Notes under the pieces: generated by a model
Seen by the model: the letters and a program-made list of their open reading frames with translations, nothing else
The model's database searches: none
What the model was told of the DNA's origin: nothing
From: an uncultured Gammaproteobacteria bacterium
Lineage (GTDB): Bacteria; Patescibacteriota; Patescibacteriia; Magasanikbacterales; JBBTQS01
Assembly: GCA_965230935.1 (NCBI GenBank)
Contig: OZ246400.1
Coordinates: 848,864-912,863, forward strand
Length of the DNA stretch: 64,000 nucleotides
Reading direction: 5' to 3'
Position numbers and translations under genes: made by a program
Part shown: piece after piece, positions 35,093-55,005 of the stretch
How positions within the stretch are numbered: the stretch's first letter is position 1
How the letters are laid out: each line of letters opens with the position of its first letter

Positions 35093-35098
35093 CTGCGC

Positions 35099-35309: not shown

Positions 35310-35310
35310 T

Positions 35311-35364: not shown

Positions 35365-35421
35365 CCTCAAGTTGTTGGTGAGTGTGTGGATCAGTTGCGC
35401 TGGTGAGGCGCTACCGAAGCA

Positions 35422-36381: not shown

Positions 36382-36554
36382 GAGAATGCCTCCGTTGCTT
36401 ACTGTCTCTTACTGTTGCGCTCAAACGCCGGCACCTGCCGACTCGTACTTGGGGTAAACCCGTTCCGTAGGGAATACATTTACTGTTTTTGGAAAATGCC
36501 CTCCTTACGAAGCGTTTTCTTAAACAACGTAAAATCAACTCGAAATAACTGAGA

Positions 36555-36583
36555 AGTATAGCACAAAAAAGCAGTTTTGTCAA
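36555..36583 (-). promoter_or_regulatory. Near-consensus promoter TTGACA-N17-TGcTATACT on the minus strand, about 170 nt upstream of the lipoprotein gene
   Basis: Reverse complement of 36555-36583, read directly from the sequence. Confidence 0.5.
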
Positions 36584-36631
36584 GGTTTGAAGGCTTAAAT
36601 AAGCTAATTTTGCTAAAAGTAGCAATAATAA

Positions 36632-36660
36632 AAATTGCCCAAATTGGGCAATTTTTACTT
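36632..36660. terminator. Bidirectional intrinsic terminator downstream of topA (aaattgccc-aaatt-gggcaattt between A and T tracts)
   Basis: Read directly from the sequence. Confidence 0.65.
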
Positions 36661-36679
36661 TTTTCAATTGTGAAGAAAT

Positions 36680-38911: not shown

Positions 38912-38961
38912 ACGAAAAAAATACTAACTGTGCTTGAGCATAAATGAGGCTCTGATGATTG

Positions 38962-40344: not shown

Positions 40345-40353
40345 GAAGGTATT

Positions 40354-41427
40354 TTACAAACGAATGTATTGTTGTCCACCGGTGTCTTTTGCAAAGCCGG
40401 CAAGTTCCATTGCCATTATAGTACGGAGAATATCTTTTTGTGGCAAATTACTTTTGGCAATCAGACGGTCAATTGTCTGCGGGGTAGTATTAAGCAATGC
40501 GTATAGCTGGGTAAATTTTTCAGGCACTACTCGTGATGTTTGGGATGACGATGCAACTTCAAGTAGCTGCAAGATCTGGTCAGGATGCGTGATACTATAT
40601 GCTCCTTGTGCGATCAACTCATTTGCCCCGGCACTGGAATGTGAAAAAATGGATCCAGGAATTGCGCCAACAGATCGGTGGTATTCAAGTGCTAATCGTG
40701 CGGTGATCTTCGCTCCGGATTTACTCGCCGCTTCAATGACCAACGTCATAGCACACATTCCGGCAATGATACGATTACGACGTGGATAGGAGTATTTGTG
40801 TGATGGCATTGTTGGCGGAAATTCACTGATGATCGCGCCGTGGTGTTGAATGATATTTCGTGCCAAGCCTAGATGGTGTTTGGGGAAGAGGTGTGCATCA
40901 TTGCATCCTCCTGGCAAAATCGCTGCAGTGTAGCCACCACTAGCAAGGGTGGTTTGGTGCGTGTGACCATCAACACCATAGGCAAGGCCGCTGATGACCC
41001 CTACATTGTGTTGCGTCAGAGGCGGCACAATATGTTCGATCACTTGTCGTCCATATGGAGTGATTTTTCGTGAACCAACAACTGCAACAAGTGGTAGTTG
41101 TGGTGGTGGGAGTTTGCCTCGCACAAATAGTATTGCAGGCGCGTCTGGAATTTGTTTGAGTAGTTTTGGATAGGGGACATCTTGGTAGGTGATCGGGTGA
41201 ATTAACTCATCTACGAGATATTGCCAAAGACGATCAGGGTTGCATTGTTTGCGCCAATCACAAAACTCCTCAATTTTGATTTGCGGTACGTGTGGTGTTT
41301 TGATTTTGGAAGACGACAATGTCCACACCTTTTTGGGGTGATGGTGATGCAACACAGCTCTCAGGTGTTGTGGACGCCACTTGGGATAGGATGCGATTGC
41401 CGTCAAAAACCATGACGGATGCTCCAT
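40354..41427 (-). CDS. dprA: DNA processing protein DprA/Smf
   Basis: Rossmann-like motifs VAVVGSRK and ISGLAYGVD. Confidence 0.88.
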   Translation of the reverse strand: MEHPSWFLTAIASYPKWRPQHLRAVLHHHHPKKVWTLSSSKIKTPHVPQIKIEEFCDWRKQCNPDRLWQYLVDELIHPITYQDVPYPKLLKQIPDAPAILFVRGKLPPPQLPLVAVVGSRKITPYGRQVIEHIVPPLTQHNVGVISGLAYGVDGHTHQTTLASGGYTAAILPGGCNDAHLFPKHHLGLARNIIQHHGAIISEFPPTMPSHKYSYPRRNRIIAGMCAMTLVIEAASKSGAKITARLALEYHRSVGAIPGSIFSHSSAGANELIAQGAYSITHPDQILQLLEVASSSQTSRVVPEKFTQLYALLNTTPQTIDRLIAKSNLPQKDILRTIMAMELAGFAKDTGGQQYIRL

Positions 41428-41430
41428 AGC

Positions 41431-41970
41431 TTAGCGCAAAAATTTTTCCTCAATGAGGATTGGTAATTGATTGAGTATACCACGAAGCTTCATGCGCTCC
41501 AAGAGTGAGAGGTTTCCTAAAACGTATTTTTCTGTTGGAATACGTGGGTGTCGTCCAATGCCAATACGAATTCGCCAAAATGCTTTTGTTCCAATCTCAT
41601 GAATGACTGAAAGCACGCCATTGTGTCCAGCCGCACTTTTATCAAATTGTACGCGAACTTCTCCTGGAGCAATATCCAAGTCATCGTGAATTACCACCAA
41701 ATCTTCTGCAAGCGCATCGTGCCAATGGAGGAGTGCACGAATACTTACTCCGGAGCGGTTCATGTAGGTTTGTGGTTTTGCCAAAACAACTTTGTGTTTT
41801 CCCATCCGTCCATCACACGTGATGGCATTGGTTTTGCGTTGTTCAGTCCAGTTGGAGCAAGACCACTCGCTTTTGTGTCGACGCAGATGATCTACTGCTA
41901 AAAAACCAACATTATGTCGGTTATGTTCGTATTGTTTTCCTGGATTGCCAAGTCCAACAATGAGCACCAT
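41431..41970 (-). CDS. pth: Peptidyl-tRNA hydrolase
   Basis: LIVGLGNPG and HNVGF motifs. Confidence 0.93.
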   Translation of the reverse strand: MVLIVGLGNPGKQYEHNRHNVGFLAVDHLRRHKSEWSCSNWTEQRKTNAITCDGRMGKHKVVLAKPQTYMNRSGVSIRALLHWHDALAEDLVVIHDDLDIAPGEVRVQFDKSAAGHNGVLSVIHEIGTKAFWRIRIGIGRHPRIPTEKYVLGNLSLLERMKLRGILNQLPILIEEKFLR

Positions 41971-41971
41971 A

Positions 41972-43327
41972 TTAACGCTTATACTTTCGAATATACACGG
42001 TTACCGGTGTTCCTTCAAAATCAAAATGTTCACGAAGTTGATTTTCAAGAAAATGGATGTAGGAATCATGTACCGATGTTTTGTATTTAATGACCGCCTC
42101 AAACACCGGCGGTTCAGTGGCAACTTGAGAGAAGGAAAGAACTTTGGGATGTCGTGATCCTTTGCCGCGTGACGGACGATGTTTTTTTGTAACGGTCTTG
42201 AGCCATGTTTCAAGCACGTCCGGTTCAATAATTTTTTTCCGTTGTTGCACCACACGCTCGACTGTTTCAAAAATTTGGTGAACTTTAGTTCCTGATTTGG
42301 CACTCACAAATATAATCGGTGCCCAGGTTAAAAATGGATAATACCCATGAATCATTTTAATAAACAAGCTTCGCGCTTCTTGGCTGTGATCTTCAACCAG
42401 GTCCCATTTGTTGACGATCACAACAATCCCGGCGTGCTTGCCCTCGATGAGGCTCATTAGATGTTTTTCTTGTGACGAGAATGGCTCAGTGGCATCAAGG
42501 ACAAGTAAAGCGACCTGAGCATCATCAAAGGATCGAATACTGTCAGCTACACCAAGTTTCTCTAGTCCTTTTTGTACCCGTGCTTTTTTACGAATTCCGG
42601 CAGTATCAATGAATCGAAAATACTTGTCGTCGTGGAGAATATCCACATCAAATGATTCACGAGTGGTATGTGGAATCTCGCTTACAATGACTTCTCGCGC
42701 TCCGGCTAAGGCGTTTAAGAGTGATGATTTGCCAACATTTGGTTTTCCAATAATCGTAACCCGTGCTGCAATCTCTCGTTCAAGAGCGCAAGAGTGGTCT
42801 TGGCGTAAGGGGAGCAATTGATGTACGGCGTCAAGCATGTCACCAATGCCGCTTCCGTTTGCTGCAGAGACGGGAAGTGGGTCACCAAATCCAAGTGCAC
42901 TCCATTCATGAGAGAATGCATGGGTACGCCAATTATCGGTGTCAGCCTTATTTGCAACAACCACCACCGGTTTGTTTAGTTTACGTAGTCGTTTTGCTAA
43001 TTCTTTTTCTTGTGGCAATGTCCCAATTTGCACATCAACAACAAACACCACAACATCAGCTTCGGCAAGCGCCAGCTCTGATTGCTCAAGTACTTCTCGT
43101 TCAAACAACAGTTCGTTTTCAAAAGTGAGTCCGCCGGTGTCAACTACCATGATTGCCTCACCGCGCCAGTACAAGATTCCGGTGTTGCGCGTGCGTGTGG
43201 TTCCGGAGACATCAGAGACCAGTGCTTTTTGTTTTTCAATGAGTCGATTGAACAATGTTGATTTTCCAACATTTGTTCTCCCTACTAACGCTATCGTTGG
43301 GTACGTTGTTGGTGCTTTGCGTTTCAT
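41972..43327 (-). CDS. der: GTPase Der/EngA (two GTPase domains plus KH domain)
   Basis: Two G-domains (GRTNVGKST and GKPNVGKSS). Confidence 0.93.
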   Translation of the reverse strand: MKRKAPTTYPTIALVGRTNVGKSTLFNRLIEKQKALVSDVSGTTRTRNTGILYWRGEAIMVVDTGGLTFENELLFEREVLEQSELALAEADVVVFVVDVQIGTLPQEKELAKRLRKLNKPVVVVANKADTDNWRTHAFSHEWSALGFGDPLPVSAANGSGIGDMLDAVHQLLPLRQDHSCALEREIAARVTIIGKPNVGKSSLLNALAGAREVIVSEIPHTTRESFDVDILHDDKYFRFIDTAGIRKKARVQKGLEKLGVADSIRSFDDAQVALLVLDATEPFSSQEKHLMSLIEGKHAGIVVIVNKWDLVEDHSQEARSLFIKMIHGYYPFLTWAPIIFVSAKSGTKVHQIFETVERVVQQRKKIIEPDVLETWLKTVTKKHRPSRGKGSRHPKVLSFSQVATEPPVFEAVIKYKTSVHDSYIHFLENQLREHFDFEGTPVTVYIRKYKR

Positions 43328-44787
43328 AGCGATGCTGTGGTGATATCGTCTCCCAAGATAATCAGAATGTCGCTGTCCTCTTGTGCGGTGGTTGGGATTT
43401 CTTGTGCTGGTATTACTTGGGCATCAAGAAGTTCTGCCAATTGTGTTGTTTCATCTTCAAATTCACCATCGCGCAAATCATAGATTACGGTTGAGGTGAA
43501 TGGGCGATTTTCAGCGTTTCCAATACTATGCACGAAATGATCCTGCTCGGTAATGCGTGCTTTGATCTTGGCCGCGAGTCCTACTACCCAGGTACCATTT
43601 TGAATTTCAATACTTGCCGCACCTTCTGGTTTAATAATTTCTTCTTCTTTTTCCGGAACAATCACGACTCGATCAGATAAGGTGGTGGTTCCGTTGATTT
43701 GTCCGCCAAAGATGTCACGAATCGCAATTTGAATTTGGCGAAACGTTCGATCTCGTGGCAAAAGCATGTAAAGATTTTCACCACTGCCATTGGCAAGCAG
43801 GCCGCCCGGTGCGTCAGATAATACTAAGCTGTTGATATTATCAGTGTCTAAGTTTTTTGCAATACGTACCAGTTGCAATGCCGTACTAATATCAGCATTG
43901 GTGACAATATTGTGCGAAAGCGTCTTGCGCAAGCTGTTTAACTTTCCTGGGTTAAGTAGCGTGGAAAGGGAAAGGAGTTTGTTTTTAAAGCCAACAATAA
44001 CTTTTTGTTGACGGCGTGATCGGGCAAAGTCCGAACCCTCGCCATTGCCTCCATGACGCGAGCGAGCATAGTGTAATGCTGTTTCACCATCAAGGTGTTG
44101 TGGTCCGGCTTCAAACTCAACGGTTTGGTATTGATGATTGTCAGTAGGGAATCGGGTATCAATAAAATCTCGATCAACCACTACATCAATACCACCTACT
44201 TCGTTGATGAGTTGTTCGAACCCGGCAAAATCCATGCGAACGTAGTAATGGATTGGCTGTTGGGTGATTTGTTCAATCACGCGGATTGCATGTTCGGCAC
44301 CATTACCAGGCTCTTCAAGTTCACCAAACGCATTTGCATGATTAATTTTACGCCATCCATATCCTGGGATAGGTACGGCAAGATCGCGGGGAATAGACAC
44401 CATGGAAATTTCATCTGTCGATGGTTTGATGCTCGCTAAGATAATGGTATCAGTGAGATAGGCACCATCATGTCCTGCTCCGCCCATTCCCAAAAATACA
44501 ATGTTAATCCGGTCTGCTTTCAGTCCGTCAATTCTTCCTTCATCATTCAAAATCAGATTACGCAGTGTGCCGAAAAAACCAGAATGATGTTCGCCTCGAT
44601 ACCATCCTTCATCGCTGTTAGGTCCATCAGTACCAAAGACTACTCCGCTTACCCATGTGGTAAAGAAGAGTGCCGCAATGATTAAAGAAAAAAACAACCC
44701 AGTGCGGCGAAGGACTCGCATAAACCCGCCTTTGCGGGCTGTTGGGCTTTCTTGGTGTTTGATTTGTTGTAGAAAGTCGTTTTCCAT
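43324..44787 (-). CDS. LytR-CpsA-Psr (LCP) family cell-envelope phosphotransferase
   Basis: N-terminal TM segment and an LCP core (NIVFLGMGG...DTIILASI). Confidence 0.85.
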   Translation of the reverse strand: MENDFLQQIKHQESPTARKGGFMRVLRRTGLFFSLIIAALFFTTWVSGVVFGTDGPNSDEGWYRGEHHSGFFGTLRNLILNDEGRIDGLKADRINIVFLGMGGAGHDGAYLTDTIILASIKPSTDEISMVSIPRDLAVPIPGYGWRKINHANAFGELEEPGNGAEHAIRVIEQITQQPIHYYVRMDFAGFEQLINEVGGIDVVVDRDFIDTRFPTDNHQYQTVEFEAGPQHLDGETALHYARSRHGGNGEGSDFARSRRQQKVIVGFKNKLLSLSTLLNPGKLNSLRKTLSHNIVTNADISTALQLVRIAKNLDTDNINSLVLSDAPGGLLANGSGENLYMLLPRDRTFRQIQIAIRDIFGGQINGTTTLSDRVVIVPEKEEEIIKPEGAASIEIQNGTWVVGLAAKIKARITEQDHFVHSIGNAENRPFTSTVIYDLRDGEFEDETTQLAELLDAQVIPAQEIPTTAQEDSDILIILGDDITTASL

Positions 44788-44951
44788 GCTTATTCAGCGT
44801 CAGTATACTCTAAAAATAGTGAATAGACTAGAGGTGGGTATGCACATGAATCACTGTATTTTTTGCTTAAATTTTGACAAATTTTTTTCTGCAAAAATAA
44901 GCATATATTTTGTTTTTTTCTTAAAATAAGCCAAAAAACTGCATTATAAAC

Positions 44952-44980
44952 TTGACAAAAGCACCAAAATGTGTTATAGT
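44952..44980 (+). promoter_or_regulatory. Near-consensus promoter TTGACA-N17-TGtTATAGT upstream of island 2
   Basis: Read directly from the sequence. Confidence 0.55.
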
Positions 44981-45006
44981 CTTTTGTTCTTTTCATGTGC
45001 TTTTTG

Positions 45007-45097
45007 CGCGAGTTGTGTAGAGGAGGGGTCAGTAGATTGGCTCAAATATTCAAAGGAGGCCTGCAATCTACGACAGCAGTTCTCTGCACAACTCGCG
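45007..45097 (+). ncRNA. 91-nt structured leader element: 16-bp outer stem (one G.U) enclosing an 8-bp inner stem, with the SD-like AAGGAGG exposed in the apical region
   Basis: cgcgagttgtgtagag pairs with ctctgcacaactcgcg; gtagattg pairs with caatctac. Read directly from the sequence. Confidence 0.4.
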
Positions 45098-45144
45098 TAA
45101 GAAGTCTGGTGCTTGGTCTGAAACCCAAACGTTGGAGGAAGAGG

Positions 45145-45303
45145 ATGCCTTTGAACAACCCATTGATGGTCACCTGCGGGAACCGTCGCTGTCGCGCGCA
45201 CGTGGCGCTGCTGTACATGCGCGTGCCGTGTACCTCGGTCCGATTGTATCGCTCATACCTATGGGAGATACTGAGGATGTTATTTACAAATCGTGTAGAA
45301 TAA
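45145..45303 (+). CDS. Possible 52-aa Cys-rich small ORF in the leader
   Basis: Good RBS (GGAGGAAGAGG then ATG). Translation is MPLNNPLMVTCGNRRCRAH...; there is no other support. Confidence 0.2.
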   Translation: MPLNNPLMVTCGNRRCRAHVALLYMRVPCTSVRLYRSYLWEILRMLFTNRVE

Positions 45304-45481
45304 TCAGGTATACCTGTACGAATCAGCTGTCTATCTCTGAGGTGCAACGTCGCATCTTGAGCTCTAAGCAATTGAGCGTGCAGGTATGCACACATCGATG
45401 ACCTTGGAGGGTCCGATGATTTTTTCCGTTTTGACCACTTTGGCCACTATCAGCAACCCCAACGACTCCGAGGAGGGAGCC

Positions 45482-47170
45482 ATGAGCGACGACAAGAAGA
45501 GCAAGAAGAAGTCGCCGCCGGCCCCGGCGGAGGCGAACGAGGGCGATGCGAAGCGCAAGTACGAGCCGGGTGACGGGCCCTACGAGCGCGTTCACGCGGA
45601 CGTCATCGGCTCGATGGAGGCGCAGTACTGCTGCAATCCTTTCGACCAGGCCGACGCGTGTGACTTCACCGGCGGTCCGGACGAGCTGACGTTGCCGAGC
45701 TTCAAGGCGCTCAACAGCAGCATCAGCCGGGTGCACGGGCTCAAGCGCGGGTTCTTCCCGGGTGACGAGGCCATCTACGCCCGTTGCCCGCAACACGCGC
45801 ACGAGGTCCGGTACGGCAACCGGACGATCCGCGAGACCTTCAAGTACACGGCCGATCGTTGGGCCGGTAAGGGTCGGACCCCGAGCACCTGGATGGCGCA
45901 GCCGCTGCCGCACCCCGAGGCCTTCAATAAGCACCCGTACTGCACTCCGTGCAGCGGGAGCTGCGGCGGCCTGTGGCTCGAGACCAACCTGTACGCCCCG
46001 CAGCCCGAGGCGCTCGTGGAGCAGCTGGAGGACGTCGAGTCCACCGGCGCGCTCACGCGGGAGCACTTCGGCGCGCATCTGCTGTGCAAGCGGTGCGTGG
46101 ACGCTGACGCGGTCGAGCAGGGGACCCTCGTCGAGTTCGCCACGATCGTGGCGGCCTTGGGTTGGGAGCCGCGGGAGTACGTGCCCGAGGCGCTCGATCT
46201 CGAGGGGTTCGAGGGGACGCAGGTCACGGTTGAGCACCCGCAGCTCGAGGTCTCGCAGAAGCTCCAGGCCGTGGTTCGTTCGACTCACACGTCGTTCGGG
46301 GTGTTCGCCCGCATCGTGGATGACGGACGTGACGCCCTGTTGCGTTGGGAGGACGTCAACGCGGACTACAACGTGGGTGACGTGATCGACATCTGGATCG
46401 CGCGGCTGCACTGCAAGACGGGTGAGGACGGCGAGTCGGATCGCCTCTTCATCTGGGCGGCGGACACCAAGCCCGTGCTCTTGGCGGACGTCAAGTCCGG
46501 CCAGGAGTTCGATGGCGAGGTGGCCTCCCACGCGCCCTTCGGCATGTTCGTGCGCATCGGTCCGGCTCTGCCGGCTGGTGTCGTGCACAAGAGCGTGCTG
46601 AGCGGCCGTTCGCGCGACGACTTCCCGGTGAACACGTTCGTCCGGGTCATGGTCAGCGACGTGGACCACAAGCGTTCTCGACTCAACCTCGTGTTGGTCG
46701 AAGACGTGGAGGGAAGCAGAGCGGTCCAGGACTGGAAGGCGCAGGCGCCGGGAGCGGAGGACGTGGTCTCGGTCGACCAGGAGGTGGGGAAAGGTAAGAC
46801 CCCCACCAAGGTCGGCCTGACCATGGTTCCGCCCAAGTCCGAGCAGCCCAAGTCCAAGAAGTCCCGGTTCGTCCCCAGGCGCCGCACGACGTACGTGGTG
46901 GGTCCCAAGCCCGCCGCTGCGCAGCAGCGTGAGGAGGTCGAGGCGCAGCTCGCCGATGCCGCCAAGGTGTTCGGTGAGGCCGAGCACATCCAGAAGACCG
47001 GTACCTACGGGGCCGGATCCAAGGACAGCATCGGTCGCTCGCTCGAGGGGCGCAAGGCCGGTAAGGCCAAGCGCTCGAAAGCCGAGGAGATCAAGGATCG
47101 GACGCTCAAGGTGTTCGGCGACCTCTTCAACGTCCGCCAGGGCAAGGGCAAGAAGGGCAAGGGCAACTGA
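45482..47170 (+). CDS. High-GC 562-aa protein: N-terminal Cys/His-rich region, three S1/OB-like RNA-binding domains and a Lys/Arg-rich tail
   Basis: GAGGAGGG RBS 6 nt upstream of the ATG. One canonical S1 motif (GQEFDGEVASHAPFGMFVRIGPALPAGVVHKSVLS) and two degenerate ones. About 66% GC with GC3-rich codons. The antisense 622-aa ORF is noise. Confidence 0.7.
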   Translation: MSDDKKSKKKSPPAPAEANEGDAKRKYEPGDGPYERVHADVIGSMEAQYCCNPFDQADACDFTGGPDELTLPSFKALNSSISRVHGLKRGFFPGDEAIYARCPQHAHEVRYGNRTIRETFKYTADRWAGKGRTPSTWMAQPLPHPEAFNKHPYCTPCSGSCGGLWLETNLYAPQPEALVEQLEDVESTGALTREHFGAHLLCKRCVDADAVEQGTLVEFATIVAALGWEPREYVPEALDLEGFEGTQVTVEHPQLEVSQKLQAVVRSTHTSFGVFARIVDDGRDALLRWEDVNADYNVGDVIDIWIARLHCKTGEDGESDRLFIWAADTKPVLLADVKSGQEFDGEVASHAPFGMFVRIGPALPAGVVHKSVLSGRSRDDFPVNTFVRVMVSDVDHKRSRLNLVLVEDVEGSRAVQDWKAQAPGAEDVVSVDQEVGKGKTPTKVGLTMVPPKSEQPKSKKSRFVPRRRTTYVVGPKPAAAQQREEVEAQLADAAKVFGEAEHIQKTGTYGAGSKDSIGRSLEGRKAGKAKRSKAEEIKDRTLKVFGDLFNVRQGKGKKGKGN

Positions 47171-47258
47171 GACCTGGTAGAGGCCAGGCACTACACGACA
47201 ACAACAACTGGTTTTGGGGCGGCGCGGACAACGGAGTAACTTCCCGCGTTTGCGTCGC

Positions 47259-47308
47259 CCCTGTCCAATAGTGCAGCTCAGTATACTGAGAGATACTATT
47301 GGGCAGGG
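47259..47308 (+). promoter_or_regulatory. 50-bp near-perfect palindrome (14-bp arms flanking the self-complementary CTCAGTATACTGAG), immediately upstream of the RBS of the next gene
   Basis: Read directly from the sequence. Operator-like. Confidence 0.35.
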
Positions 47309-47326
47309 AAGACAAGGAGGGCCATC

Positions 47327-48001
47327 TTGAAGAGTTTTTCCTCTTTTCGTCTGGTTCGGCGAAGAGGGTTTCGATGGTCAGTGCTGCTTGTCATGCTGGT
47401 CATCTTCATCTTGATTTTTGTCCCGTTGGAGGTGGCACCTATGACGACTACGCCGGAACATGTGGTGAGCTGTGATGCGCCCAGCAAGGTCGTCGTCAGT
47501 TTCACTCAGGAGCAGATGCGCCAACAGGTGAGCCGGGTGTTTCCGATCAATTTGCCTGAGGTGGTGCGCATGGTGGACGTGGTGCTGCACGATCCATCGA
47601 TCACCTTGAACCAGATCAGCGCCAGCACAGTCACACTGGAGCTCGGCGCAACGTTGGTGGTGAGCACGCCATTGCCTGGTGTTCCGGAAGGGCGGTATCG
47701 TGCAACGATCAGCGCCACCGGATCGTTGGTGTACGGCAATGTGCACAAGGCCGTGTACATCAGTGAGTTTGCCATCACGCAGCTCACGCTCAGCGGACGT
47801 CTTGCGCATGTTCAGGACTCGACGCGCTTGCGCGCGTATGTCCAGGAGGTGTTGCAACAGCAGGTGCTGAGTAATGTGCCGCTGTACCGGACAAGTGAGG
47901 CTCAACTCGCCACGATCGCACCAAATGCGGCTGTGGTACAGGCTGCACTCACCCCCAGTGGGGAGGTGCACATTGGTCTGAGCTGGGATGAGCACCGCTG
48001 A
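47327..48001 (+). CDS. DUF1439 (YceB-like) family protein with signal peptide; TTG start
   Basis: AAGGAGGG RBS 7 nt upstream of the TTG. Basic-hydrophobic N-terminus. Resemblance to the DUF1439 pattern. About 58-60% GC. Confidence 0.55.
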   Translation: MKSFSSFRLVRRRGFRWSVLLVMLVIFILIFVPLEVAPMTTTPEHVVSCDAPSKVVVSFTQEQMRQQVSRVFPINLPEVVRMVDVVLHDPSITLNQISASTVTLELGATLVVSTPLPGVPEGRYRATISATGSLVYGNVHKAVYISEFAITQLTLSGRLAHVQDSTRLRAYVQEVLQQQVLSNVPLYRTSEAQLATIAPNAAVVQAALTPSGEVHIGLSWDEHR

Positions 48002-48028
48002 TCACTCGACAACTCATACAACCGTTGG

Positions 48029-48065
48029 CCGCGCGAGCAAACTGCACGCGCGGCTTTCGAATTTG
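48029..48065 (+). terminator. GC-rich hairpin terminator ending island 2 (gccgcgcg...cgcgcggc followed by tttcgaattt)
   Basis: Read directly from the sequence. Confidence 0.45.
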
Positions 48066-48091
48066 CAAAAAAACTAAGGAATTTGTATACT
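48063..48091 (+). promoter_or_regulatory. Promoter TTGCAA-N17-TATACT for hup
   Basis: Read directly from the sequence. Confidence 0.5.
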
Positions 48092-48129
48092 TGCGCTGTT
48101 ATTGTTAACTCTTAACGCCTACCAACATT

Positions 48130-48414
48130 ATGGCTAAAGGAATTACTAAGTCTCAACTTATGAATGAGTTGGGTGAAAAGTGGGGTGTCAGCAAAAAAGA
48201 GGCTGCTGAAATGCTTGAAGCATTAGTGCAACTTGCATACCACCACGCAAAGACTGATGGGGAAATGATGATCCCTGGTCTTGGGAAGCTGGTAAAAGCA
48301 CACCGTAAAGCACGTATGGGTCGTAACCCAGCAACCGGTGAGCAAATTCACATCCCTGCTAAGACTGTGGCAAAGTTCCGTTTAGCAAAGGCCGCAAAAG
48401 ACGCAATTCTCTAA
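48130..48414 (+). CDS. hup: HU/IHF family DNA-binding protein
   Basis: 94 aa; GFGKF-like arm (IPGLGKLVKAHRKARMGRNPATGEQI). Confidence 0.9.
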   Translation: MAKGITKSQLMNELGEKWGVSKKEAAEMLEALVQLAYHHAKTDGEMMIPGLGKLVKAHRKARMGRNPATGEQIHIPAKTVAKFRLAKAAKDAIL

Positions 48415-48432
48415 ACGTAGAATTACGAGACA

Positions 48433-48458
48433 AAAAAGCCGCGCAAGCGGCTTTTTTG
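48433..48458. terminator. Bidirectional terminator between the convergent HU genes (aaaaaagccgcgcaagcggctttttt)
   Basis: Read directly from the sequence. Confidence 0.7.
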
Positions 48459-48491
48459 ATGGGTATTCCTTTTTCGGTACCTAGTAAAGAC

Positions 48492-48914
48492 CTACGACGT
48501 TGGTGCTGAATCACCTGTCGAGTCATCTGCCGGAGAAGATGGTTCCGGAGGTGAGGCCGGGGCACTTGGGGTTGGTGTTTCAGTAGCTGGTGTTGAAGGG
48601 GCTGCAGGTGCACTTCCTTCGTGTTGAGATTTCTTGAGTGCATCCTTAAGGTTTTTTCCGGCCTTAAACTTGGCTACTTTAGTAGGATTGATGGTAATTT
48701 TTTCACTTGGATTTTGTGGGTTCACCCCAATACGACCTGCACGAACACGTGCGGAGAACGTACCAAATCCAGCAAGAACCACCTCACCGTTCATTTTAAG
48801 GGTATCAGTGGTGATACTCATAAAGGCCTCAACCATATCTTCGGCCTCTTTTTTGCTCACACCAACTTTGGCGCTAATTGCATCGGCTAATTCTGCTTTA
48901 TTCATGTTCGTCAC
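48492..48914 (-). CDS. HU family DNA-binding protein with a Pro/Ala/Ser/Thr-rich acidic C-terminal tail
   Basis: HU core (GFGTFSARVRAGRIGVNPQNPSEKI) plus a roughly 45-aa PAST-rich tail. Confidence 0.85.
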   Translation of the reverse strand: MTNMNKAELADAISAKVGVSKKEAEDMVEAFMSITTDTLKMNGEVVLAGFGTFSARVRAGRIGVNPQNPSEKITINPTKVAKFKAGKNLKDALKKSQHEGSAPAAPSTPATETPTPSAPASPPEPSSPADDSTGDSAPTS

Positions 48915-48968
48915 CTCCCTCTAGGAGTAGGTTATTTTACACAATCAGTGTACCAGAAGTATGCAAAT

Positions 48969-50492
48969 TTAGCGAGCGTATTCAATAACTCGTGTCTCGC
49001 GGATCACTGTGACCTTTACTTCACCAGGATATTTGATTTCTGACTCAATATTGCGAGCAATATTCTTGGCCAAGCCAAATGCACCGTAATCGTCCAGATT
49101 TTTAGGGTTCACAAACACGCGAATTTCACGTCCTGCCTGAATCGCATAGGCTTTTTCAACTCCAGGATGGCTATTAGCTATGTTTTCAAGTTCTTCAAGC
49201 TTTTGGATATACAGCTCATGAGAGTCTCGTCGGGCTCCTGGACGTGCCCCAGAAAGCGCATCTGCTACTTTGGAAATCGAACCAAGCAATGTCTTTGGTG
49301 CGTCCTCATGATGGGCAACACAACAATAGGCAATCTCTTCCGGCATGTTGAATTTTTTCATGATGGCATAGCCAATTTCTGGATGTCCTCCTTGAGTTTC
49401 GTGATCTACCGCTTTTCCAATATCATGGAACAATCCTGCTTTTTTGGCAGCAACCGGGTCAGCGCCTAACTCTTTTGCAAGCATTTCAGAGAAATATGCC
49501 ACTTCTTTTGAATGTTTGAGTTGGTTTTGGCCAAAGCTGGTGCGGTATTTCAATCGTCCTAAAATAGACACAAGCTTTGGATCAATGCCGGTAATACCAA
49601 GTTCATACAGCACTTCTTCACCGGCGCGTTTAATATCAAGTGCTAACTCCTTTTTGGCCTCTTCAACAAAGTTTTCAATACGCGCCGGATGGATCCGACC
49701 ATCTTTAAGCAGTTTCTCTAATGTGATTCGTGCCACTTGACGACGAATCGGCGCAAAACTTGAGATAGTAACCACACCAGGGGTCTCATCGATAATAAAG
49801 TCACAGCCGGTGAGGCGCTCAAGCATGCGGATGTTGCGCCCCTCTTTTCCAATAATGCGTCCCTTCATTTCTTCATTAGGGATTTCTACCACGCTGGTTG
49901 CATTTTCTGAGACTGTTGAAGCCGCATACCGTTCCATAATGACCGAGAGTTTGCGATTGGCAATGCGCTCAAGTTCTTCTTCGTCTTCTCGTTGGAGTTT
50001 TTGGATGCGACTTGCAAGCTCTTCTTTTGATTGCTCTTCTACTTTTTCGAGCAACTGTGTTTTGGCGTCTTCCACTGATAATTTTGCCACTCCTTCAAGC
50101 TTGGTAATTTCTTGATTGCGGATGTCCTCAATCTCAGTTGCCTTATTTTTGACTAATTCGATCTGCTCTTTGAGCTTTTCTTGTCGATCCTGAAACTCCA
50201 TGAGCTTTTGATCAAACATGTTTTCTCGTTTTTCAAGTCGATCTTGTGTTTGTTTGAGCTCATTGCGTCGGGTTTGTTCTTCTTTTTTGGCTTCATCTAA
50301 TACATGCAATGCCTTCTCCTTGGCCTCAAGCATGATCTGTTGCTGTTTGGCTTTGGTCTCGGTGAGCATTTTGTCAGCTCGTGCTTCAATAGAGTTGGCA
50401 TTGGCAGCAGCAAGTTGCTTGCGCAACACGTACCCAATAGCAAAACCGACAATGGCAGTACCCAGTGCAATAAGAATGGTAGTGGTAGTCAT
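48969..50492 (-). CDS. rny: Ribonuclease Y
   Basis: N-terminal TM segment, coiled coil, KH domain (IGKEGRNIR) and HD domain (GLFHDIGK). Confidence 0.93.
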   Translation of the reverse strand: MTTTTILIALGTAIVGFAIGYVLRKQLAAANANSIEARADKMLTETKAKQQQIMLEAKEKALHVLDEAKKEEQTRRNELKQTQDRLEKRENMFDQKLMEFQDRQEKLKEQIELVKNKATEIEDIRNQEITKLEGVAKLSVEDAKTQLLEKVEEQSKEELASRIQKLQREDEEELERIANRKLSVIMERYAASTVSENATSVVEIPNEEMKGRIIGKEGRNIRMLERLTGCDFIIDETPGVVTISSFAPIRRQVARITLEKLLKDGRIHPARIENFVEEAKKELALDIKRAGEEVLYELGITGIDPKLVSILGRLKYRTSFGQNQLKHSKEVAYFSEMLAKELGADPVAAKKAGLFHDIGKAVDHETQGGHPEIGYAIMKKFNMPEEIAYCCVAHHEDAPKTLLGSISKVADALSGARPGARRDSHELYIQKLEELENIANSHPGVEKAYAIQAGREIRVFVNPKNLDDYGAFGLAKNIARNIESEIKYPGEVKVTVIRETRVIEYAR

Positions 50493-50683
50493 ATGATTTT
50501 GGTGGTGCCAAAATCAAAAGAGAAGATCACACGAAGTTATTCTCGTGTGAGAGTCAGTGTGTGGGTGAGATAAGTAAAACGTGTGTACATAAGTGACTCA
50601 ACCAGATGCTGTCTGACGATCTTCGCTTCAATTTCAGCAATTACCTTACAAAATTAAATTTCTGTACCGCTAGTGTAGCGTAT

Positions 50684-51364
50684 TTATGCTTGATTGGCAA
50701 GTGTTAGTGACTGCCAGTTTTCAGTGGTGATTTGGGTAATTTCATGGCATTGATCAAGGGAATATTGACCAATTCGTGTGCGAGTAAGTGCACTGGCATA
50801 GGCGCCGCAGCCAAGTGTTTGACCGATGTCATGGATAAGCGTCCGGATGTAGGTTCCAGGACCACATACAATACGCAATTGTGCTTGTTGATTTTGGGTA
50901 TCAACGTGGAGCAGTTCAATAGATGAGATGCTAATGGTTGTTGGTTGGCGGGCAATAGTTTTTCCAGCACGCGCCAATTCATACAGTTTTTTTCCTTGAA
51001 TTTTTTTGGCACTATACATTGGTGGTATTTGTGAGATGTTGCCAATAAATTTGGGGAGAACTTGTTGAAGAGTCTCTTGGGTGATTGTTGCAGGATGAGG
51101 ATGTGGTGTAATGATGCCGTCACTATCTTGAGTGTCGCTGACGGCACCAAATTGTGCAGTGGCAATATATTCTTTTTCAAGCGCTTTAAATTGATCAATA
51201 GATTTGGTGCTTTCGCGAGTAATGGCGACAATAAGTACCCCGGTAGCAAAAGGGTCAAGTGTGCCAGCGTGGCCGATTTTTTTCTCACCAGTAATACTGC
51301 GTAATTTAGCGACAATATCGTGAGAAGTCCATTCTTTTGGTTTATTGATGCACACAAATGGCAT
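50684..51364 (-). CDS. truB: tRNA pseudouridine-55 synthase TruB
   Basis: GHAGTLDPFATGVL motif. Confidence 0.92.
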   Translation of the reverse strand: MPFVCINKPKEWTSHDIVAKLRSITGEKKIGHAGTLDPFATGVLIVAITRESTKSIDQFKALEKEYIATAQFGAVSDTQDSDGIITPHPHPATITQETLQQVLPKFIGNISQIPPMYSAKKIQGKKLYELARAGKTIARQPTTISISSIELLHVDTQNQQAQLRIVCGPGTYIRTLIHDIGQTLGCGAYASALTRTRIGQYSLDQCHEITQITTENWQSLTLANQA

Positions 51365-51513
51365 ATACTGAGTTTTAGGATTGATAATATGTTCAAACTA
51401 TACTAGTATCATCAATACTACTCAAGACAAGTCATGACGGATGGTGCGTGTCCTATATTTAGGGTAGGCATGGTCCGTTATACAGCCACGGGTTGGTTGG
51501 AGGAGTACCTCAG

Positions 51514-52416
51514 ATGATAATTGAAGTCGGCCCAGACGGGGGGAGCGTAAAGCATCCTCCTCCTGCTGGCAGCAGCGAAGACCGGCGGCGTCGTGGCCGT
51601 AGCAGAGGTCGACGCGGTGGTCGGCGAGGAAAAGGAACAGGAGGTTCAAAACTCGATTCGTCAAATAGGGCCTCGGGTGGTGCAGACCCTCCTAGGCTAG
51701 TCGTAAGGGGGAAAGAACCACCATCGGATAGTCCTCCCGACGAGTCAGTGTTACTGGCCGCACAGTTGATGGAGCTTGTAGAGGGCTCTTTAGACTCGAG
51801 CGGGTTGCCAGGCTTGCGGGAATTTGATCCTGAGTTGAGCTCAGAGGATCGCGAGGAGTTGCGTCAACGGTTTCGAGAGGTCGTGGCCAAGTTGTGCGCG
51901 CACGTGGATCAGTTGCAGCTTCACCAGCTGGCGCTCCAGCCAGATGTCGGTGGACCGCTTCGCGAGGTGCGTCTATGCTTGCTCGGCTGGATGGATCTTG
52001 CGAGTGCTCGACGCAAAGCGGTGTATGCGGCGCTTGATCGCGCAATACTCGCCTTGATCGCGCAAGAGGAGAGCGACCCAAAGGAGTCACTTGGACGTAC
52101 CCAGCGTCGGCGGCGTGAGCGACGTTCACGGATTGCACGTCAAGTGCGACAGCTTCGCTTGCGCCTGGAATCTATCCATCCCGGCAAGGATGGTATGAGT
52201 TTTCAGGAGTACGATCTTGTGCGTCCGGCCCTTGAAGGGCAAATTCGTCGATTGGCTGAAGTTCGAGATTTGAGACGCAACAGACGGGCACAGACCCTCT
52301 TTGCTCATCTGCTCGAGACTCTGCCTATGTGGCGCGGGCTTCCAAGAGCAGAACGACGAGTAGTGCTCTATGAGCTCAGACGGCTTGAGAGGCTGTTCAC
52401 GGACTCAGACTCGTAG
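51514..52416 (+). CDS. High-GC hypothetical protein (300 aa; Arg/Gly-rich N-terminus, Arg/Leu-rich helical remainder)
   Basis: GGAGGAG RBS 7 nt upstream of the ATG at 51514. About 60% GC; the antisense ORF is noise. No recognisable domain. Confidence 0.55.
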   Translation: MIIEVGPDGGSVKHPPPAGSSEDRRRRGRSRGRRGGRRGKGTGGSKLDSSNRASGGADPPRLVVRGKEPPSDSPPDESVLLAAQLMELVEGSLDSSGLPGLREFDPELSSEDREELRQRFREVVAKLCAHVDQLQLHQLALQPDVGGPLREVRLCLLGWMDLASARRKAVYAALDRAILALIAQEESDPKESLGRTQRRRRERRSRIARQVRQLRLRLESIHPGKDGMSFQEYDLVRPALEGQIRRLAEVRDLRRNRRAQTLFAHLLETLPMWRGLPRAERRVVLYELRRLERLFTDSDS

Positions 52417-52443
52417 TCCATACCATCCAACAAACAACACGAT

Positions 52444-52471
52444 GCAGCGTCAACGGCGCTGCTTTGGTTTT
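52444..52471 (+). terminator. Hairpin terminator (gcagcg-tcaacgg-cgctgc followed by TTTGGTTTT) ending island 3
   Basis: Read directly from the sequence. Confidence 0.45.
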
Positions 52472-52491
52472 GGGCTGATATGTCCTGAATC

Positions 52492-52519
52492 TTGCATTTT
52501 TTCTCGATTTTGCTATACT
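52492..52519 (+). promoter_or_regulatory. Promoter TTGCAT-N16-TGcTATACT for infB
   Basis: Read directly from the sequence. Confidence 0.5.
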
Positions 52520-52537
52520 CCCAGCACATTTCATCCT

Positions 52538-54580
52538 ATGAACGTCACTGAACTTGCACGGCGCATGCGCATGAACACCGCAACGCTCCTGGAAATTCTC
52601 CCGGAGTTTGGTTTTGATATTGGGAAACGCGCGATTAAAGTAGATGATCGGATTGCGCAGAAGATTTTGCGGCAAAGTAAATACATTAAAGAGGCGCTTG
52701 AGAAGCGTAAAGAAGAAGAGGCAAAAAAGCGCAAAGAGTTGGAACGTCAGATGCGTCAGGAAAAAGGGGAGAGTGTTGTGATTCCTGATCGTATTACCGT
52801 ACGCGAATTTGCTGATCGGCTTGGGTTGCCGGTAACAACAATTATTGCGGAGTTGATGAAGAATGGTATTTTGGCAAACTTAAATGAAAATATTGATCGG
52901 GATACCGCAACTGTGTTAGCCGAAGACCTTGGTTTTATTGTACAGCAGCAAGATCAAGATGCTCAGGAAGTTGAAAGTGAGCAGGTGGTTGATTCTCTTG
53001 AGACGGCACTTGGTCAACAAGATAGCGAGGCATTTGTTGCTCGTCCACCGGTTGTGGTGGTGATGGGACATGTAGATCATGGAAAAACAAGCTTGCTTGA
53101 TGCGGTGCGTAAGACCAATGTAATTGCCGGTGAATCCGGTGGAATTACCCAACACATTGGTGCCTATCAGGTTGATCACACCATGAAAGAGGGTGGTGAA
53201 TCTCGTAAAGTGACTTTTGTTGATACTCCAGGACATGAGGCGTTTACGGTTATGCGATCACGTGGTGCGCGAGTTGCTGATATTGCGATTTTAGTGGTGG
53301 CTGCTGATGATGGGGTCATGCCACAGACTGTTGAAGCAATTGATATTATCAATGCGGCAAAGTTGCCCATGGTTGTGGCAATCAACAAGATGGACAAAGA
53401 AGGTGCAAATCCTGAAAAAGTAAAAACAGAACTTTCACAGCGTAATATTGTTCCAGAAGAGTGGGGAGGAAAAGTACCGATGGTGCAGATTTCTGCCAAA
53501 GAAGGGACAAACATCGACGCCTTGCTTGAAACGGTATTGCTGATGGCTGATGTTCACGAAGAGGCAATTGTAGCAGATCCTGACCATTCTGCTGTTGGAA
53601 CCGTGGTTGAGTCCCATGTTGATAAAGGTGAGGGGCCAGTTGCTACGATTTTGGTCCAAGCTGGCACCCTTCGTCGTGGTGATGTTTTGGCAGTGAATGG
53701 ACAGATCTATGGAACGGTTCGGGCAATGAAAGATTTTCGTGCAGATGATGTTAAAGAGGCTGGTCCGTCAATGCCGGTCAAGATTTTGGGATTCAAAGCT
53801 GCTCCGTCAGTTGGTGATATTTTAGATGTGGCTGCAGCAAAAGATGCCACAAAGATTAAGAAAACCAAGACAACTAGTAAGCCAGCTACCGTGGTTGCGC
53901 CGGTATCCTCATCTGATGAAGATGAAGAAGACGAAGGCAAGAAAAAGATGTTGTACGTAGTGCTGAAAGCCGATGTGCTTGGTTCGCTTGAGGCAATTTT
54001 GGCGTCAATTGAAAAGTTTGTGCATGATGAAGTCGGGGTGAAGGTTGTGGGTAAAGGTCTTGGCAATATCACCGAGGCTGAGATTGATCGCGCAACATCC
54101 ACTGGTGCGCAAGTATTTGCGTTTCATGTAGCGGTTCCACCATCAGTAAAAGACTTGGCAAAAGATAAAGAAGTGGTGGTGCAGCGTTTTGAAGTGATTT
54201 ATAAGTTGCTTGAGTATATTGAAGCAGAGTTGCAAAAGCTTTTGCCGTCAGAGCGCATTGTGCATGAATTGGGTCATGCAACCGTGAAGGCGATTTTCCG
54301 TAAAGATAAAAGTGCTATGACGGTTGGATCGTTGTTGGAGGATGGTAAGTTTACCTTGGAGGCGCGCGTGCGCATCAAGCGCGGTGGTGAGGTGATTGGA
54401 GATGGTAAGATTGAGAGTTTGCAGATTGGTGCCTCAAAAGAAAAAGAGATTCCCGCAGGAACTGAGTTTGGTATGCGGGTAGTAAGCAAGACAGGAATTG
54501 AAGAGGGTGATATACTGGAAGCCTACACCGAAGAGGTGAAGCAGCGAAAAATTGAATTTAAACACGTTACTCAAGAGTAA
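52538..54580 (+). CDS. infB: Translation initiation factor IF-2
   Basis: IF2-N domain (MNVTELARRMRM), G-domain ([12 protein letters not shown]) and a C-terminal beta-barrel. The start is set at 52538 rather than the long ORF-track start. Confidence 0.93.
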   Translation: MNVTELARRMRMNTATLLEILPEFGFDIGKRAIKVDDRIAQKILRQSKYIKEALEKRKEEEAKKRKELERQMRQEKGESVVIPDRITVREFADRLGLPVTTIIAELMKNGILANLNENIDRDTATVLAEDLGFIVQQQDQDAQEVESEQVVDSLETALGQQDSEAFVARPPVVVVMGHVDHGKTSLLDAVRKTNVIAGESGGITQHIGAYQVDHTMKEGGESRKVTFVDTPGHEAFTVMRSRGARVADIAILVVAADDGVMPQTVEAIDIINAAKLPMVVAINKMDKEGANPEKVKTELSQRNIVPEEWGGKVPMVQISAKEGTNIDALLETVLLMADVHEEAIVADPDHSAVGTVVESHVDKGEGPVATILVQAGTLRRGDVLAVNGQIYGTVRAMKDFRADDVKEAGPSMPVKILGFKAAPSVGDILDVAAAKDATKIKKTKTTSKPATVVAPVSSSDEDEEDEGKKKMLYVVLKADVLGSLEAILASIEKFVHDEVGVKVVGKGLGNITEAEIDRATSTGAQVFAFHVAVPPSVKDLAKDKEVVVQRFEVIYKLLEYIEAELQKLLPSERIVHELGHATVKAIFRKDKSAMTVGSLLEDGKFTLEARVRIKRGGEVIGDGKIESLQIGASKEKEIPAGTEFGMRVVSKTGIEEGDILEAYTEEVKQRKIEFKHVTQE

Positions 54581-54592
54581 ATTTGAATCATT

Positions 54593-54910
54593 ATGGATAT
54601 CACAGATGCAAATTTTGAAACCGAAGTTTTGAAGAGTGAAGTGCCAGTACTGGTTGATTTTTGGGCACCGTGGTGTGGACCATGCCAAATGATGAAGCCG
54701 CTGGTTGAAGAGATGGAGCAGGAATTAAATGGCAAAGGTGAGTACAAAGTAGTAAAAATGAATGTGGATGAGAATTCAGCAACTCCTGGTAAATATGGGG
54801 TGATGAGTATCCCAGCGTTTAAGGTGTTTAAAGGTGGTGAGGTGGTTGGACAGGCTGTTGGTGGGCAGACCAAGGAGCAATTGATGGAGCTGTTGGGTCA
54901 GGCAAAGTAA
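54593..54910 (+). CDS. trxA: Thioredoxin
   Basis: WCGPC active site. Confidence 0.93.
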   Translation: MDITDANFETEVLKSEVPVLVDFWAPWCGPCQMMKPLVEEMEQELNGKGEYKVVKMNVDENSATPGKYGVMSIPAFKVFKGGEVVGQAVGGQTKEQLMELLGQAK

Positions 54911-54933
54911 ATTAGTAAAAAATGATTTTTATT

Positions 54934-54958
54934 AAGCGCCCTTCGGGCGCTTTTTTGT
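54934..54958 (+). terminator. Intrinsic terminator after trxA (aagcgccc-ttcg-ggcgctttttt)
   Basis: Read directly from the sequence. Confidence 0.7.
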
Positions 54959-55005
54959 GCCGTTGACTTTTCCTTCACTTTTCGCGAGAATAAAGACACT
55001 GTCTT

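Follow-up and report, generated by a model that had tools for sequence, protein, structure and literature searches.

The 64,000-nucleotide stretch analysed here (hereafter the window; contig OZ246400.1) contains a GC-rich region of two genes between a gene of the LCP family and hup, which encodes an HU protein. Comparison of this locus across five lineages established that it is a conserved slot, framed by a promoter, a leader RNA hairpin and the hup border, and that its cargo is lineage-specific and of a composition alien to the host. That the cargo has been exchanged from a GC-rich gene pool is the reading we prefer, with a probability of about 0.5. In the window, the cargo consists of a 562-residue, likely RNA-binding protein (gene 1) and a 224-residue, membrane-anchored protein with a predicted YceB/TULIP-type fold (gene 2).

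A conserved slot with lineage-specific cargo

The mean GC content of the window is 45.9%, and 500-nt intervals outside its two GC-rich islands (the slot and a single gene described below) average 0.449 (sd 0.027). Across 45501-46751, such intervals reached 0.65-0.69 (z 7.5-9.2), followed by values of 0.52-0.60 up to about 48000. The region between LCP and hup is therefore the longest and highest GC anomaly of the window, as had been claimed in an earlier reading of the sequence alone (the sequence-only reading). The figure of about 66% GC given there for 45145-48065 applies to gene 1 (0.667) and not to the whole span, which has 0.621; gene 2 has 0.575 and the leader 50%. GC content at third codon positions (GC3) is 0.895 in gene 1 and 0.70 in gene 2, against 0.31-0.46 in host open reading frames (ORFs). 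In composition and codon usage, the region thus resembles a genomic island (z up to 9.2; codon correlation of gene 1 with the host, -0.15). The mobility hallmarks of an island and an identifiable donor were not found, the only matches being generic S1-domain proteins.

Two plus-strand ORFs (45386/45482-47170 and 47327-48001) fill the region, and the description of it as two co-oriented genes with strong Shine-Dalgarno (SD) sequences between LCP and hup held, both ribosome-binding sites being of the GGAGG type. Nucleotide similarity between the window and its siblings (blastn) stops at the LCP start codon (44787) and restarts at 48061-48063, which is the hup promoter, so the right border proposed at 48065 proved precise. 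The GC-rich terminator expected to abut the hup promoter is represented by a hairpin directly 5' of it (48026-48056); the consensus terminator scan made no call at this hairpin, and its T-run is poor. The proposed start at 45145 fits less well, with the promoter and the conserved leader RNA lying further left, at 44952-45108.

Sibling loci were reached through homologues of RNase Y (48969-50492 in the window); five lineages were examined including the window, several of them on truncated contigs. The RNase Y of the window is 57-62% identical to proteins of Magasanikbacteria, Uhrbacteria and Patescibacteria and 72-79% identical to those of a handful of relatives; from sequence, the host is placed as a Magasanikbacteria-like genome of about 0.93 Mb within the candidate phyla radiation (CPR). 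A Der query against GTDB representatives returned only matches of at most 39% identity from unrelated phyla. Loci L061 and L064 share the gene order Mur-ligase/DprA/Pth/Der/LCP ... hup94/hup2/rny, with truB following rny in L064 and L063. The hup/rny side is kept in L062 and L076, on whose contigs LCP is not seen beside the cargo; in L062, the gene next beyond the cargo encodes orotidine monophosphate decarboxylase. Synteny is already lost at about 60% RNase Y identity.

The site was never empty in these relatives and held other GC-rich genes (Table 1). The main orphan cargo has a GC3 of 0.79-0.90 in all five lineages, against roughly 0.2-0.5 in the hosts, and cargo GC3 is independent of host GC3. 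Searches with genes 1 and 2 against the sibling loci gave nothing at E < 1 (tblastn), and both genes are absent from all sibling genomes examined. What relatives have at this locus are different genes, themselves unlike their host in composition, and not host-like versions of the same two, which the sequence-only reading had named as a refutation. None of the sibling cargo ORFs had a Pfam, PHROG or PADLOC match above cut-off (Pfam only for the L076 ORF), and NCBIfam gave one sub-threshold match, to TolA, for the 442-residue ORF of L062. Because GC3-rich orphans also occupy the slot in the four other lineages, the composition is a recurrent feature of the locus and not the trace of a one-off import.

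The promoter agrees with the host-type consensus element that had been predicted; it is near-consensus and has an extended TG. A promoter of the form CTTGACAAAA...TGnTATAGT/TATGAT/TATTCT occupies the equivalent site in L061, L062 and L064, where it either diverges from LCP or precedes the first cargo gene. At 44925-44950, at 36590-36620 and at the equivalent sites in L061, L062 and L064, about 10-35 nt upstream of the -35 box, there are A-rich sequences related to TTTAGC(A/T/G)AAAT. This candidate element, which could be an UP element or the binding site of a regulator, is distinct in the siblings and at 36590-36620 but weak upstream of the gene 1 promoter.

The leader is structured, as anticipated (z -3.8 over 500 nt and -7.3 for a 104-nt hairpin). 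The 13-mer GTGTAGAGGAGGG of the hairpin is common to the window, L062 and L064, occurring once in each of these three among the loci compared, and an RNAalifold consensus of the three sequences has 29 pairs, of which 10 show compensatory double changes. With these three sequences as its basis, a covariance model (R1) found a fourth, independent copy at 16135-16231 of L062 (54 bits, E ~1e-10), exactly between the two cargo genes of that genome. Over the four copies, a small sample for covariation, 93.9% of cells are paired and 11 pairs have changed on both sides, which none of 500 shuffles reached; alignments with the partner slid by 1-3 columns were at most 50% paired. No copies were found elsewhere in the window, before gene 2, or in L061, L076 and L077. 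At gathering scores, Rfam yielded only two tRNAs in the window, and a permissive Rfam scan of 44800-45600 gave chance miRNA-hairpin matches only, far below threshold. By this comparison, the leader is a predicted structured RNA motif, covarying and new, and both it and the promoter are native to the slot and not imported.

Two further segments were observed in siblings. Between promoter and hairpin, L062 (17205-17330, minus strand) and L064 (6375-6490) carry about 130 nt absent from the window, with a GAGGAGAGAG box and a terminator-like hairpin followed by a U-run, which suggests an attenuator or a short transcript. Upstream of hup94, L062 (14154-14261, minus strand) and L064 (8753-8866, plus strand) share a 114-nt stretch, 75% identical, in which CCCACAGCAAGACAAG...CTTGTCTTGCTATGGG forms a long hairpin; between this hairpin and the hup promoter, directly 5' of the latter, is a terminator-like stem. 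The stretch may represent a further small RNA; it is missing from the window, where gene 2 takes that space. The 52-codon ORF downstream of the leader hairpin of the window had no meaningful Pfam match and is possibly the truncated stump of earlier cargo, or else encodes a small protein.

Table 1. Coordinates of the slot and its flanks in the window, with slot contents of four sibling loci
Feature	Position	Strand	Description
LCP-family gene (left flank)	43324-44787	-	PF03816 and LytR_C
Sigma-70-type promoter, native, divergent from LCP gene	44952-44980	+	TTGACA-17-TATAGT, extended TG; 11/12 consensus positions
Leader hairpin RNA, ~100 nt (predicted)	45005-45108	+	Invariant 13-mer GTGTAGAGGAGGG; minimum free energy (MFE) -48.1 kcal/mol, z -7.3; no Rfam family
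52-codon ORF	45145-45303	+	Good SD; first 32 codons GC3 0.84 with C-x4-C-x2-H; rest GC3 0.40 (host-like)
Antisense shadow ORF, 622 residues	45323-47191	-	GC by codon position 0.87/0.45/0.65; gene called on public record
Gene 1, 562 residues	45482-47170	+	ATG preceded by SD GAGGAGGGAG; in-frame alternative starts 45416, 45386
Cys-cluster region of gene 1	45629-46096	+	C50, C51, C60, C102/H105; C154, C157, C161, C202, C205; zinc-ribbon-like module
Degenerate S1/OB-like domain A, residues ~258-325	46253-46456	+	phmmer alignments to tandem-S1 proteins (residues 244-402)
S1 RNA-binding domain B, residues 337-403	46490-46690	+	PF00575 above gathering score, E 9e-7 and 4e-7
Intergenic structured spacer	47195-47320	+	Two adjacent hairpins, including palindrome 47254-47313 reaching the gene 2 SD; inverted repeat I1
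Gene 2, 224 residues	47327-48001	+	TTG start after AAGGAGG; membrane anchor residues ~14-31; DUF1439/YceB domain residues 61-193
Terminator-like hairpin, GC-rich	48026-48056	+	GGCCGCGCG...CGCGCGGCU; inverted repeat I20; MFE -24.3 kcal/mol, z -3.5; weak U tract after
Slot right border	48061-48129	+	hup promoter TTTGCA-18-TATACT and 5' untranslated region; blastn similarity to L061-L065 begins 48061-48063
hup, 94-residue HU gene (right flank)	48130-48414	+	PF00216
L064 (GCA_964627525.1) slot beside hup94			IMPDH, then 472-residue ORF; cargo GC3 0.83, host 0.17-0.21
L062 (GCA_964554065.1) slot beside hup94			231- and 442-residue ORFs; cargo GC3 0.79 and 0.61, host 0.37
L061 (GCA_964480225.1) slot beside hup94			176-residue ORF, two host-like genes, 97-residue ORF; cargo GC3 0.87 and 0.72, host 0.36
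L076 (Logan contig) slot			128-residue ORF directly upstream of hup94; cargo GC3 0.85, host ~0.46-0.5

Products of the two cargo genes

Gene 1 is encoded on the plus strand, because GC content by codon position is 0.66/0.45/0.895 in its frame and 0.87/0.45/0.65 in the antisense frame; the 622-residue minus-strand ORF annotated on the public record is a shadow and not a real gene. The antisense ORFs had no Pfam match. By exact-sequence look-up, the antisense product is present in the public protein collection (with an NCBI contig as source) and the plus-strand protein is absent from it, which is why gene 1 missed itself in the first protein search. There are two alternatives to the start used here: ATG 45416, likewise with a good SD, and ATG 45386, the most upstream of the frame. 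GC3 is already 0.75 over the 32 codons preceding ATG 45482.

The protein is laid out as a Lys-rich basic N-terminal tail, a Cys cluster, two S1/OB-type domains and a 150-residue C-terminal tail with 22% Lys and Arg. Its residues 50-205 contain ten cysteines, arranged as C-x..C ... C-x2-H and C-x2-C ... C-x2-C. Domain B scored 29.6 bits against the S1 profile PF00575 (cut-off 22; residues 337-403) and 30.7 bits as an isolated segment, and it matched bS1 chains among the PDB sequences at E 3e-4, the PDB matches being S1 repeats only. Domain A gave a sub-threshold match to OB_cyt-4 (E 0.05) and beta strands in a low-confidence AlphaFold2 model; that single-sequence model of gene 1 had a predicted local distance difference test score of 36 and was unusable. 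A segment-wise Pfam scan placed S1 in residues 326-412, a sub-threshold OB match only in 236-330 and nothing in 1-240 or 405-562, so the three S1 domains proposed by the sequence-only reading reduce to one clear and one degenerate domain.

All 109 HMMER matches of gene 1 among 1.84 billion cluster representatives fall inside residues 244-440, and the best eight, scanned against Pfam, are generic multi-S1 proteins. The N-terminal 240 and C-terminal 150 residues had zero matches in this set, and a word-indexed search of 5.8 billion proteins returned nothing for gene 1. No homologue of the Cys-cluster region was found in Pfam, PDB sequences, phages (N-terminal 240 residues) or plasmids (full-length protein). 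NCBIfam gave only sub-threshold S1-type matches. An assignment as ribosomal protein bS1 was rejected, the best NCBIfam bS1 models scoring 15-24 bits against cut-offs of 368-878, with only two repeats present. Like bS1, CvfD/GSP13-type and Rrp5 proteins, gene 1 has an S1 domain above the Pfam threshold and a degenerate second one in tandem, and its best matches in databases and the PDB are S1 repeats from bS1-like proteins; however, it has two repeats where bS1 has four to six, and its 240-residue Cys-cluster domain and Lys-rich tails were found in no known S1 protein. From its domains, the product is most likely a zinc-stabilised cytoplasmic protein that binds RNA. The C-terminal tail also contains a 15-nt direct repeat, 93% identical (46963-46977 and 47107-47121; KVFGEAEH... 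and KVFGDLFN...), which hints at duplication there.

The spacer between the genes is strongly folded (MFE -58.1 kcal/mol, z -5.0) and is not a copy of the leader motif. For gene 2, the TTG start at 47327 includes a hydrophobic helix (residues ~14-31) that a start at ATG 47441 would omit. The prediction of a DUF1439-like second protein was confirmed: gene 2 scored 40.6 bits against PF07273 (cut-off 25.9, E 2.8e-10; residues 61-193, profile positions 7-133 of 152). A tentative fold prediction came nearest to E. coli YceB (3L6I), with other lipid-binding proteins of the TULIP type next. Among 5.8 billion proteins gene 2 matched only itself, and no relative was found in PDB sequences.

DUF1439 proteins are mostly lipoproteins predicted in the outer membrane of Gram-negative bacteria, about 55% of DUF1439/YceB members have a lipobox cysteine directly after the signal peptide, and the family has been linked to TULIP lipid-transfer proteins (PMC6791001). 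Gene 2 resembles these lipoproteins in its Pfam match and in an extracytoplasmic location suggested by its hydrophobic N-terminus. It differs in its CPR host and in having a membrane-anchor helix instead of a canonical lipobox: the sole cysteine, C49 (VVSC), lies about 15 residues past the hydrophobic helix, and a membrane anchor is more likely than lipidation. The protein is too diverged from YceB for a direct sequence search to match any member. The two cargo genes also differ from each other, with a codon-usage correlation of r 0.57 and a GC3 about 0.2 apart.

Origin of the cargo

Gene 1, the GC-rich gene at 35422-36381 of the window and the sibling ORFs L064_472, L061_176 and L062_231 (four genomes together) correlate mutually in codon usage at r 0.86-0.97 and with host codon usage at about -0.1; much of the mutual agreement is joint avoidance of A/T-ending codons. 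Genes in second position (gene 2 and L062_442) are intermediate between the GC3-rich and host classes, and GC3 drops from promoter-proximal to distal cargo. L064_472 and L062_231 are the sole demonstrably homologous cargo pair (Smith-Waterman z 16.6, 37% identity, shared tail GAFGN..N.GS.SYR..K..KR.A.KE.RD). A zinc-ribbon-like pattern, C-x2-4-C and C-x2-3-C/H separated by 20-70 residues, is present in 6 of 6 main cargo proteins and in 8 of 143 host-like ORFs, a suggestive difference and not proof, since the pattern was chosen after the sequences had been inspected. The cargo proteins also have basic tails. Membership of gene 1 in the family of L064_472 and L062_231 was considered on by-eye likeness ('ARCPQHAHE' vs 'ARCAGHAD' and a KRS..EE.KD tail) and rejected when this failed statistics. 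The independent L076 protein was marginal (E 1.6) against a hidden Markov model of the sibling Cys modules.

Exchange at the slot would work as follows. The LCP gene, the promoter (44952-44980) and the hairpin (45005-45108) form the left side of the frame, and the hup promoter from 48061 the right side. After DNA uptake, cargo would be replaced from a GC-rich gene pool by homologous recombination in these conserved flanks, a route favoured because no recombinase is nearby and DprA is encoded 4 kb from the slot. The cargo would be transcribed from the native promoter, and the hairpin may act in cis as a site of mRNA processing or stabilisation, or else be bound by the RNA-binding cargo. New genes would enter beside the promoter while older, distal genes ameliorate or decay, which would produce the GC3 gradient. 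Exchange is suggested by unrelated GC3-rich genes elsewhere, namely at 35422-36381 (0.95) and in the more distant relatives L066 (0.82) and L067 (0.87). It is also suggested by the Gram-negative (diderm) family to which gene 2 belongs, by the GC3 gradient and by the putative truncated remnant.

Several results weigh against exchange. Similarity between gene 1 and the sibling cargo was at most z 2.3 (Smith-Waterman with shuffles), the model of the seven sibling Cys modules gave gene 1 an E value of 12, and a comparison of tails only gave z 0.5. The homology of L064_472 and L062_231 fits vertical descent as well as exchange, and the notion of a shared cargo type rests on a pattern picked post hoc. 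Neither a donor nor a relative of the N- and C-terminal parts of gene 1 was present in the 1.84 billion representatives, no donor was found in JGI metagenome contigs, IMG/VR, plasmids or phages, and gene 2 had only itself in 5.8 billion proteins. For a gene recently imported from GC-rich bacteria, which are well sampled, such an absence would be unexpected. The annotated neighbours include no integrase or transposase, there is no tRNA at the slot (the two of the window lie about 13 kb away), and no convincing flanking direct repeats were detected. An empty slot was not found in any relative examined, and the comparison covers only five lineages, several on truncated contigs.

Two JGI metagenome loci were set aside: at L070, an unrelated protein matched by chance in a single pattern of 8 residues, and the second locus gave the same tblastn match. 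An A-rich 16-mer at 44925 and 48060 (81% identical), considered as a flanking repeat, was weak and judged a chance likeness. PHROGs and PADLOC gave nothing useful, with no phage or defence signal.

A possible but clearly less probable origin is vertical descent of a lineage-specific, fast-evolving zinc-ribbon/basic-tail family, RNA-binding in type, which the slot would have encoded throughout and whose members would have lost all recognisable similarity; S1 domains would be a later gain of gene 1. GC3 would be actively held at about 0.8-0.9, either by selection (on mRNA structure or stability, on translation control, or for avoidance of AU-directed RNases) or by GC-biased gene conversion at a recombination hot spot. 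Conservation of promoter and leader, the homology of L064_472 and L062_231 (z 16.6) and the Cys modules and basic tails of all six cargo proteins are consistent with descent, as is a cargo GC3 of 0.79-0.90 whatever the host GC3 (0.18-0.5). The lack of an external donor in very large databases, in which CPR relatives would often be invisible through antisense gene calling, likewise argues for it. However, neither gene 1 nor gene 2 is significantly similar to sibling cargo, and the unrelated GC3-rich genes elsewhere in these genomes point to a general influx of GC-rich DNA. Moreover, we know of no mechanism that would hold GC3 at 0.9 in a genome with a GC3 of 0.2. DUF1439 is also unexpected as a native CPR gene, its members being mostly outer-membrane lipoproteins of Gram-negative bacteria (PMC6791001).

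Slightly more doubtful still is the specific proposal that the slot encodes a hypervariable zinc-ribbon/basic-tail class, RNA-binding in type, whose GC3 is locked at about 0.8-0.9 against 0.2-0.5 in the host and actively maintained. The alien composition would then not be the relic of a recent transfer and would reflect selection on mRNA or, at a hot spot of recombination, an extreme form of biased gene conversion. If so, routine annotation would overlook a whole class of genes through antisense calls.

The sequence-only reading had regarded the region as an intact imported operon, in effect a single recent import of both genes with promoter, leader and terminator from one GC-rich donor. Part of this stands: the composition is alien with sharp bounds, both ORFs are intact and look expressible, with strong SDs, and the genes are absent from siblings. 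What fails is the operon's own promoter and leader, both of which are native and conserved in siblings, the leader having only 50% GC. Arrival as one unit is contradicted by the differences between the two genes in composition and codon usage noted above and by the other GC3-rich orphans at the same site in siblings; no donor was found either. We consider a single import improbable.

Integron-like capture, with the hairpin as a folded recombination site and new cassettes entering beside the resident promoter, is more improbable again. The slot does recall integron arrays in its diverse, promoter-less genes downstream of one strong resident promoter, in the hairpin copy before each of the two cargo genes of L062 and in the possible age gradient expressed by the fall of GC3 from promoter-proximal to distal cargo. 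On the other hand, no gene within about 10 kb, either in the window or at the sibling loci, is annotated as a tyrosine or other recombinase (integrase), and gene 2 and the L061 cargo have no hairpin. Inspection of the aligned copies showed that the outer stem covaries freely, with no conserved GTTRRRY/RYYYAAC core of the attC type, and the motif is 5' of the genes where attC sites are 3'.

Contigs assembled from runs ERR2281800 and ERR2281801 (ENA MEGAHIT and Logan) are 100% identical to the window, and the paired records contain no SNPs (single-nucleotide polymorphisms). They cover 33324-46544 (L003), 46531-58001 (L001) and 46562-58001 (L002), and the Logan contigs end at 45475 and 45561. Both island borders are crossed by contigs from the two runs, with host genes contiguous with GC-rich sequence on either side, so misassembly at the borders, named in the sequence-only reading as a possible refutation, is excluded. 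Every short-read contig ends inside or at the edge of gene 1 (45475, 45561, 46531-46562), and the join at 46531-46562 rests on the public assembly together with the uninterrupted ORF and S1 domain across the break. These breaks probably reflect a GC-dependent drop in coverage, which may account for the frequent loss or splitting of such genes in metagenome-assembled CPR genomes. An assembly chimera, or GC-rich contaminant DNA fused to a CPR contig, would explain the breaks, but the linking contigs, the unbroken ORF and domain, and the recurrence of the phenomenon at this locus in four other lineages, each assembled independently, leave it hardly any probability.

GC-rich genes elsewhere and significance of the slot

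Other GC-rich genes were observed outside the slot. A single gene between relA/spoT and topA (35422-36381, minus strand) encodes a 319-residue protein whose signal is of the lipoprotein type (…PQIGC) and whose PKD-like match is weak; GC3 of this gene is the maximum of the window, and its codon usage correlates with that of gene 1 at r 0.97. Its promoter, at about 36550-36580, is of the host type (CTTGACAAAA...TGCTATACT), and the gene lacks the hairpin motif. Among relatives with about 60% RNase Y identity, L066 has a gene of the dienelactone-hydrolase family (12387-13118, plus strand) beside an HU gene, and L067 a 257-residue orphan (1-771, minus strand). GC-rich single genes thus seem widespread in this CPR group; a literature search on GC-rich genes in Patescibacteria found nothing. 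Of a different kind is a 307-residue, Arg/Gly-rich ORF in the truB-infB gap (51493-52416, plus strand) without a Pfam match (GC 0.578, first codon positions 0.72, GC3 0.52), whose anomaly is one of amino-acid composition and not of synonymous sites.

Antisense genes have been called over GC-rich genes in the window (45323-47191), in L065 (6682-7944) and in L066 (12252-13187), all on the minus strand, and between two sibling records gene callers disagreed on the strand of identical DNA. The annotation artefact is systematic: true proteins go missing from databases, and results of the 'no homologue' kind are biased. Because gene callers often pick the antisense strand, relatives resident in CPR genomes are under-represented in protein databases; relatives in GC-rich donors should nevertheless have been visible.

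The closest known organisation is that of O-antigen and capsule clusters, which combine polymorphic cargo of atypical GC content with flanks and a 5' leader (JUMPstart/ops) that are conserved. The slot resembles them in its fixed position, conserved promoter and leader, lineage-variable atypical content and plausible exchange through the flanks. It differs in holding one to a few small orphan genes, of a nucleic-acid-binding type, instead of sugar-pathway operons, in a composition shifted upwards to a GC3 of about 0.9, and in a leader that is an undescribed 100-nt hairpin. Exchange from lineage to lineage at the slot, moreover, is something we only infer.

The locus exposes the calling of GC-rich genes on the wrong strand in AT-rich genomes, and the new covarying RNA motif is a candidate regulatory or processing element. 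In the window, a protein that likely binds RNA is paired with one of the predicted TULIP fold, a lipid-carrier fold that is of interest in CPR bacteria because these presumably cannot synthesise lipids themselves. The genomes of CPR bacteria (Patescibacteria) are tiny, the cells presumably live attached to those of other organisms, and the ways in which they acquire and replace genes are little understood. A defined slot in which alien orphan genes stand under native control would offer a handle on gene flow into these genomes, or on a force that maintains composition within them.

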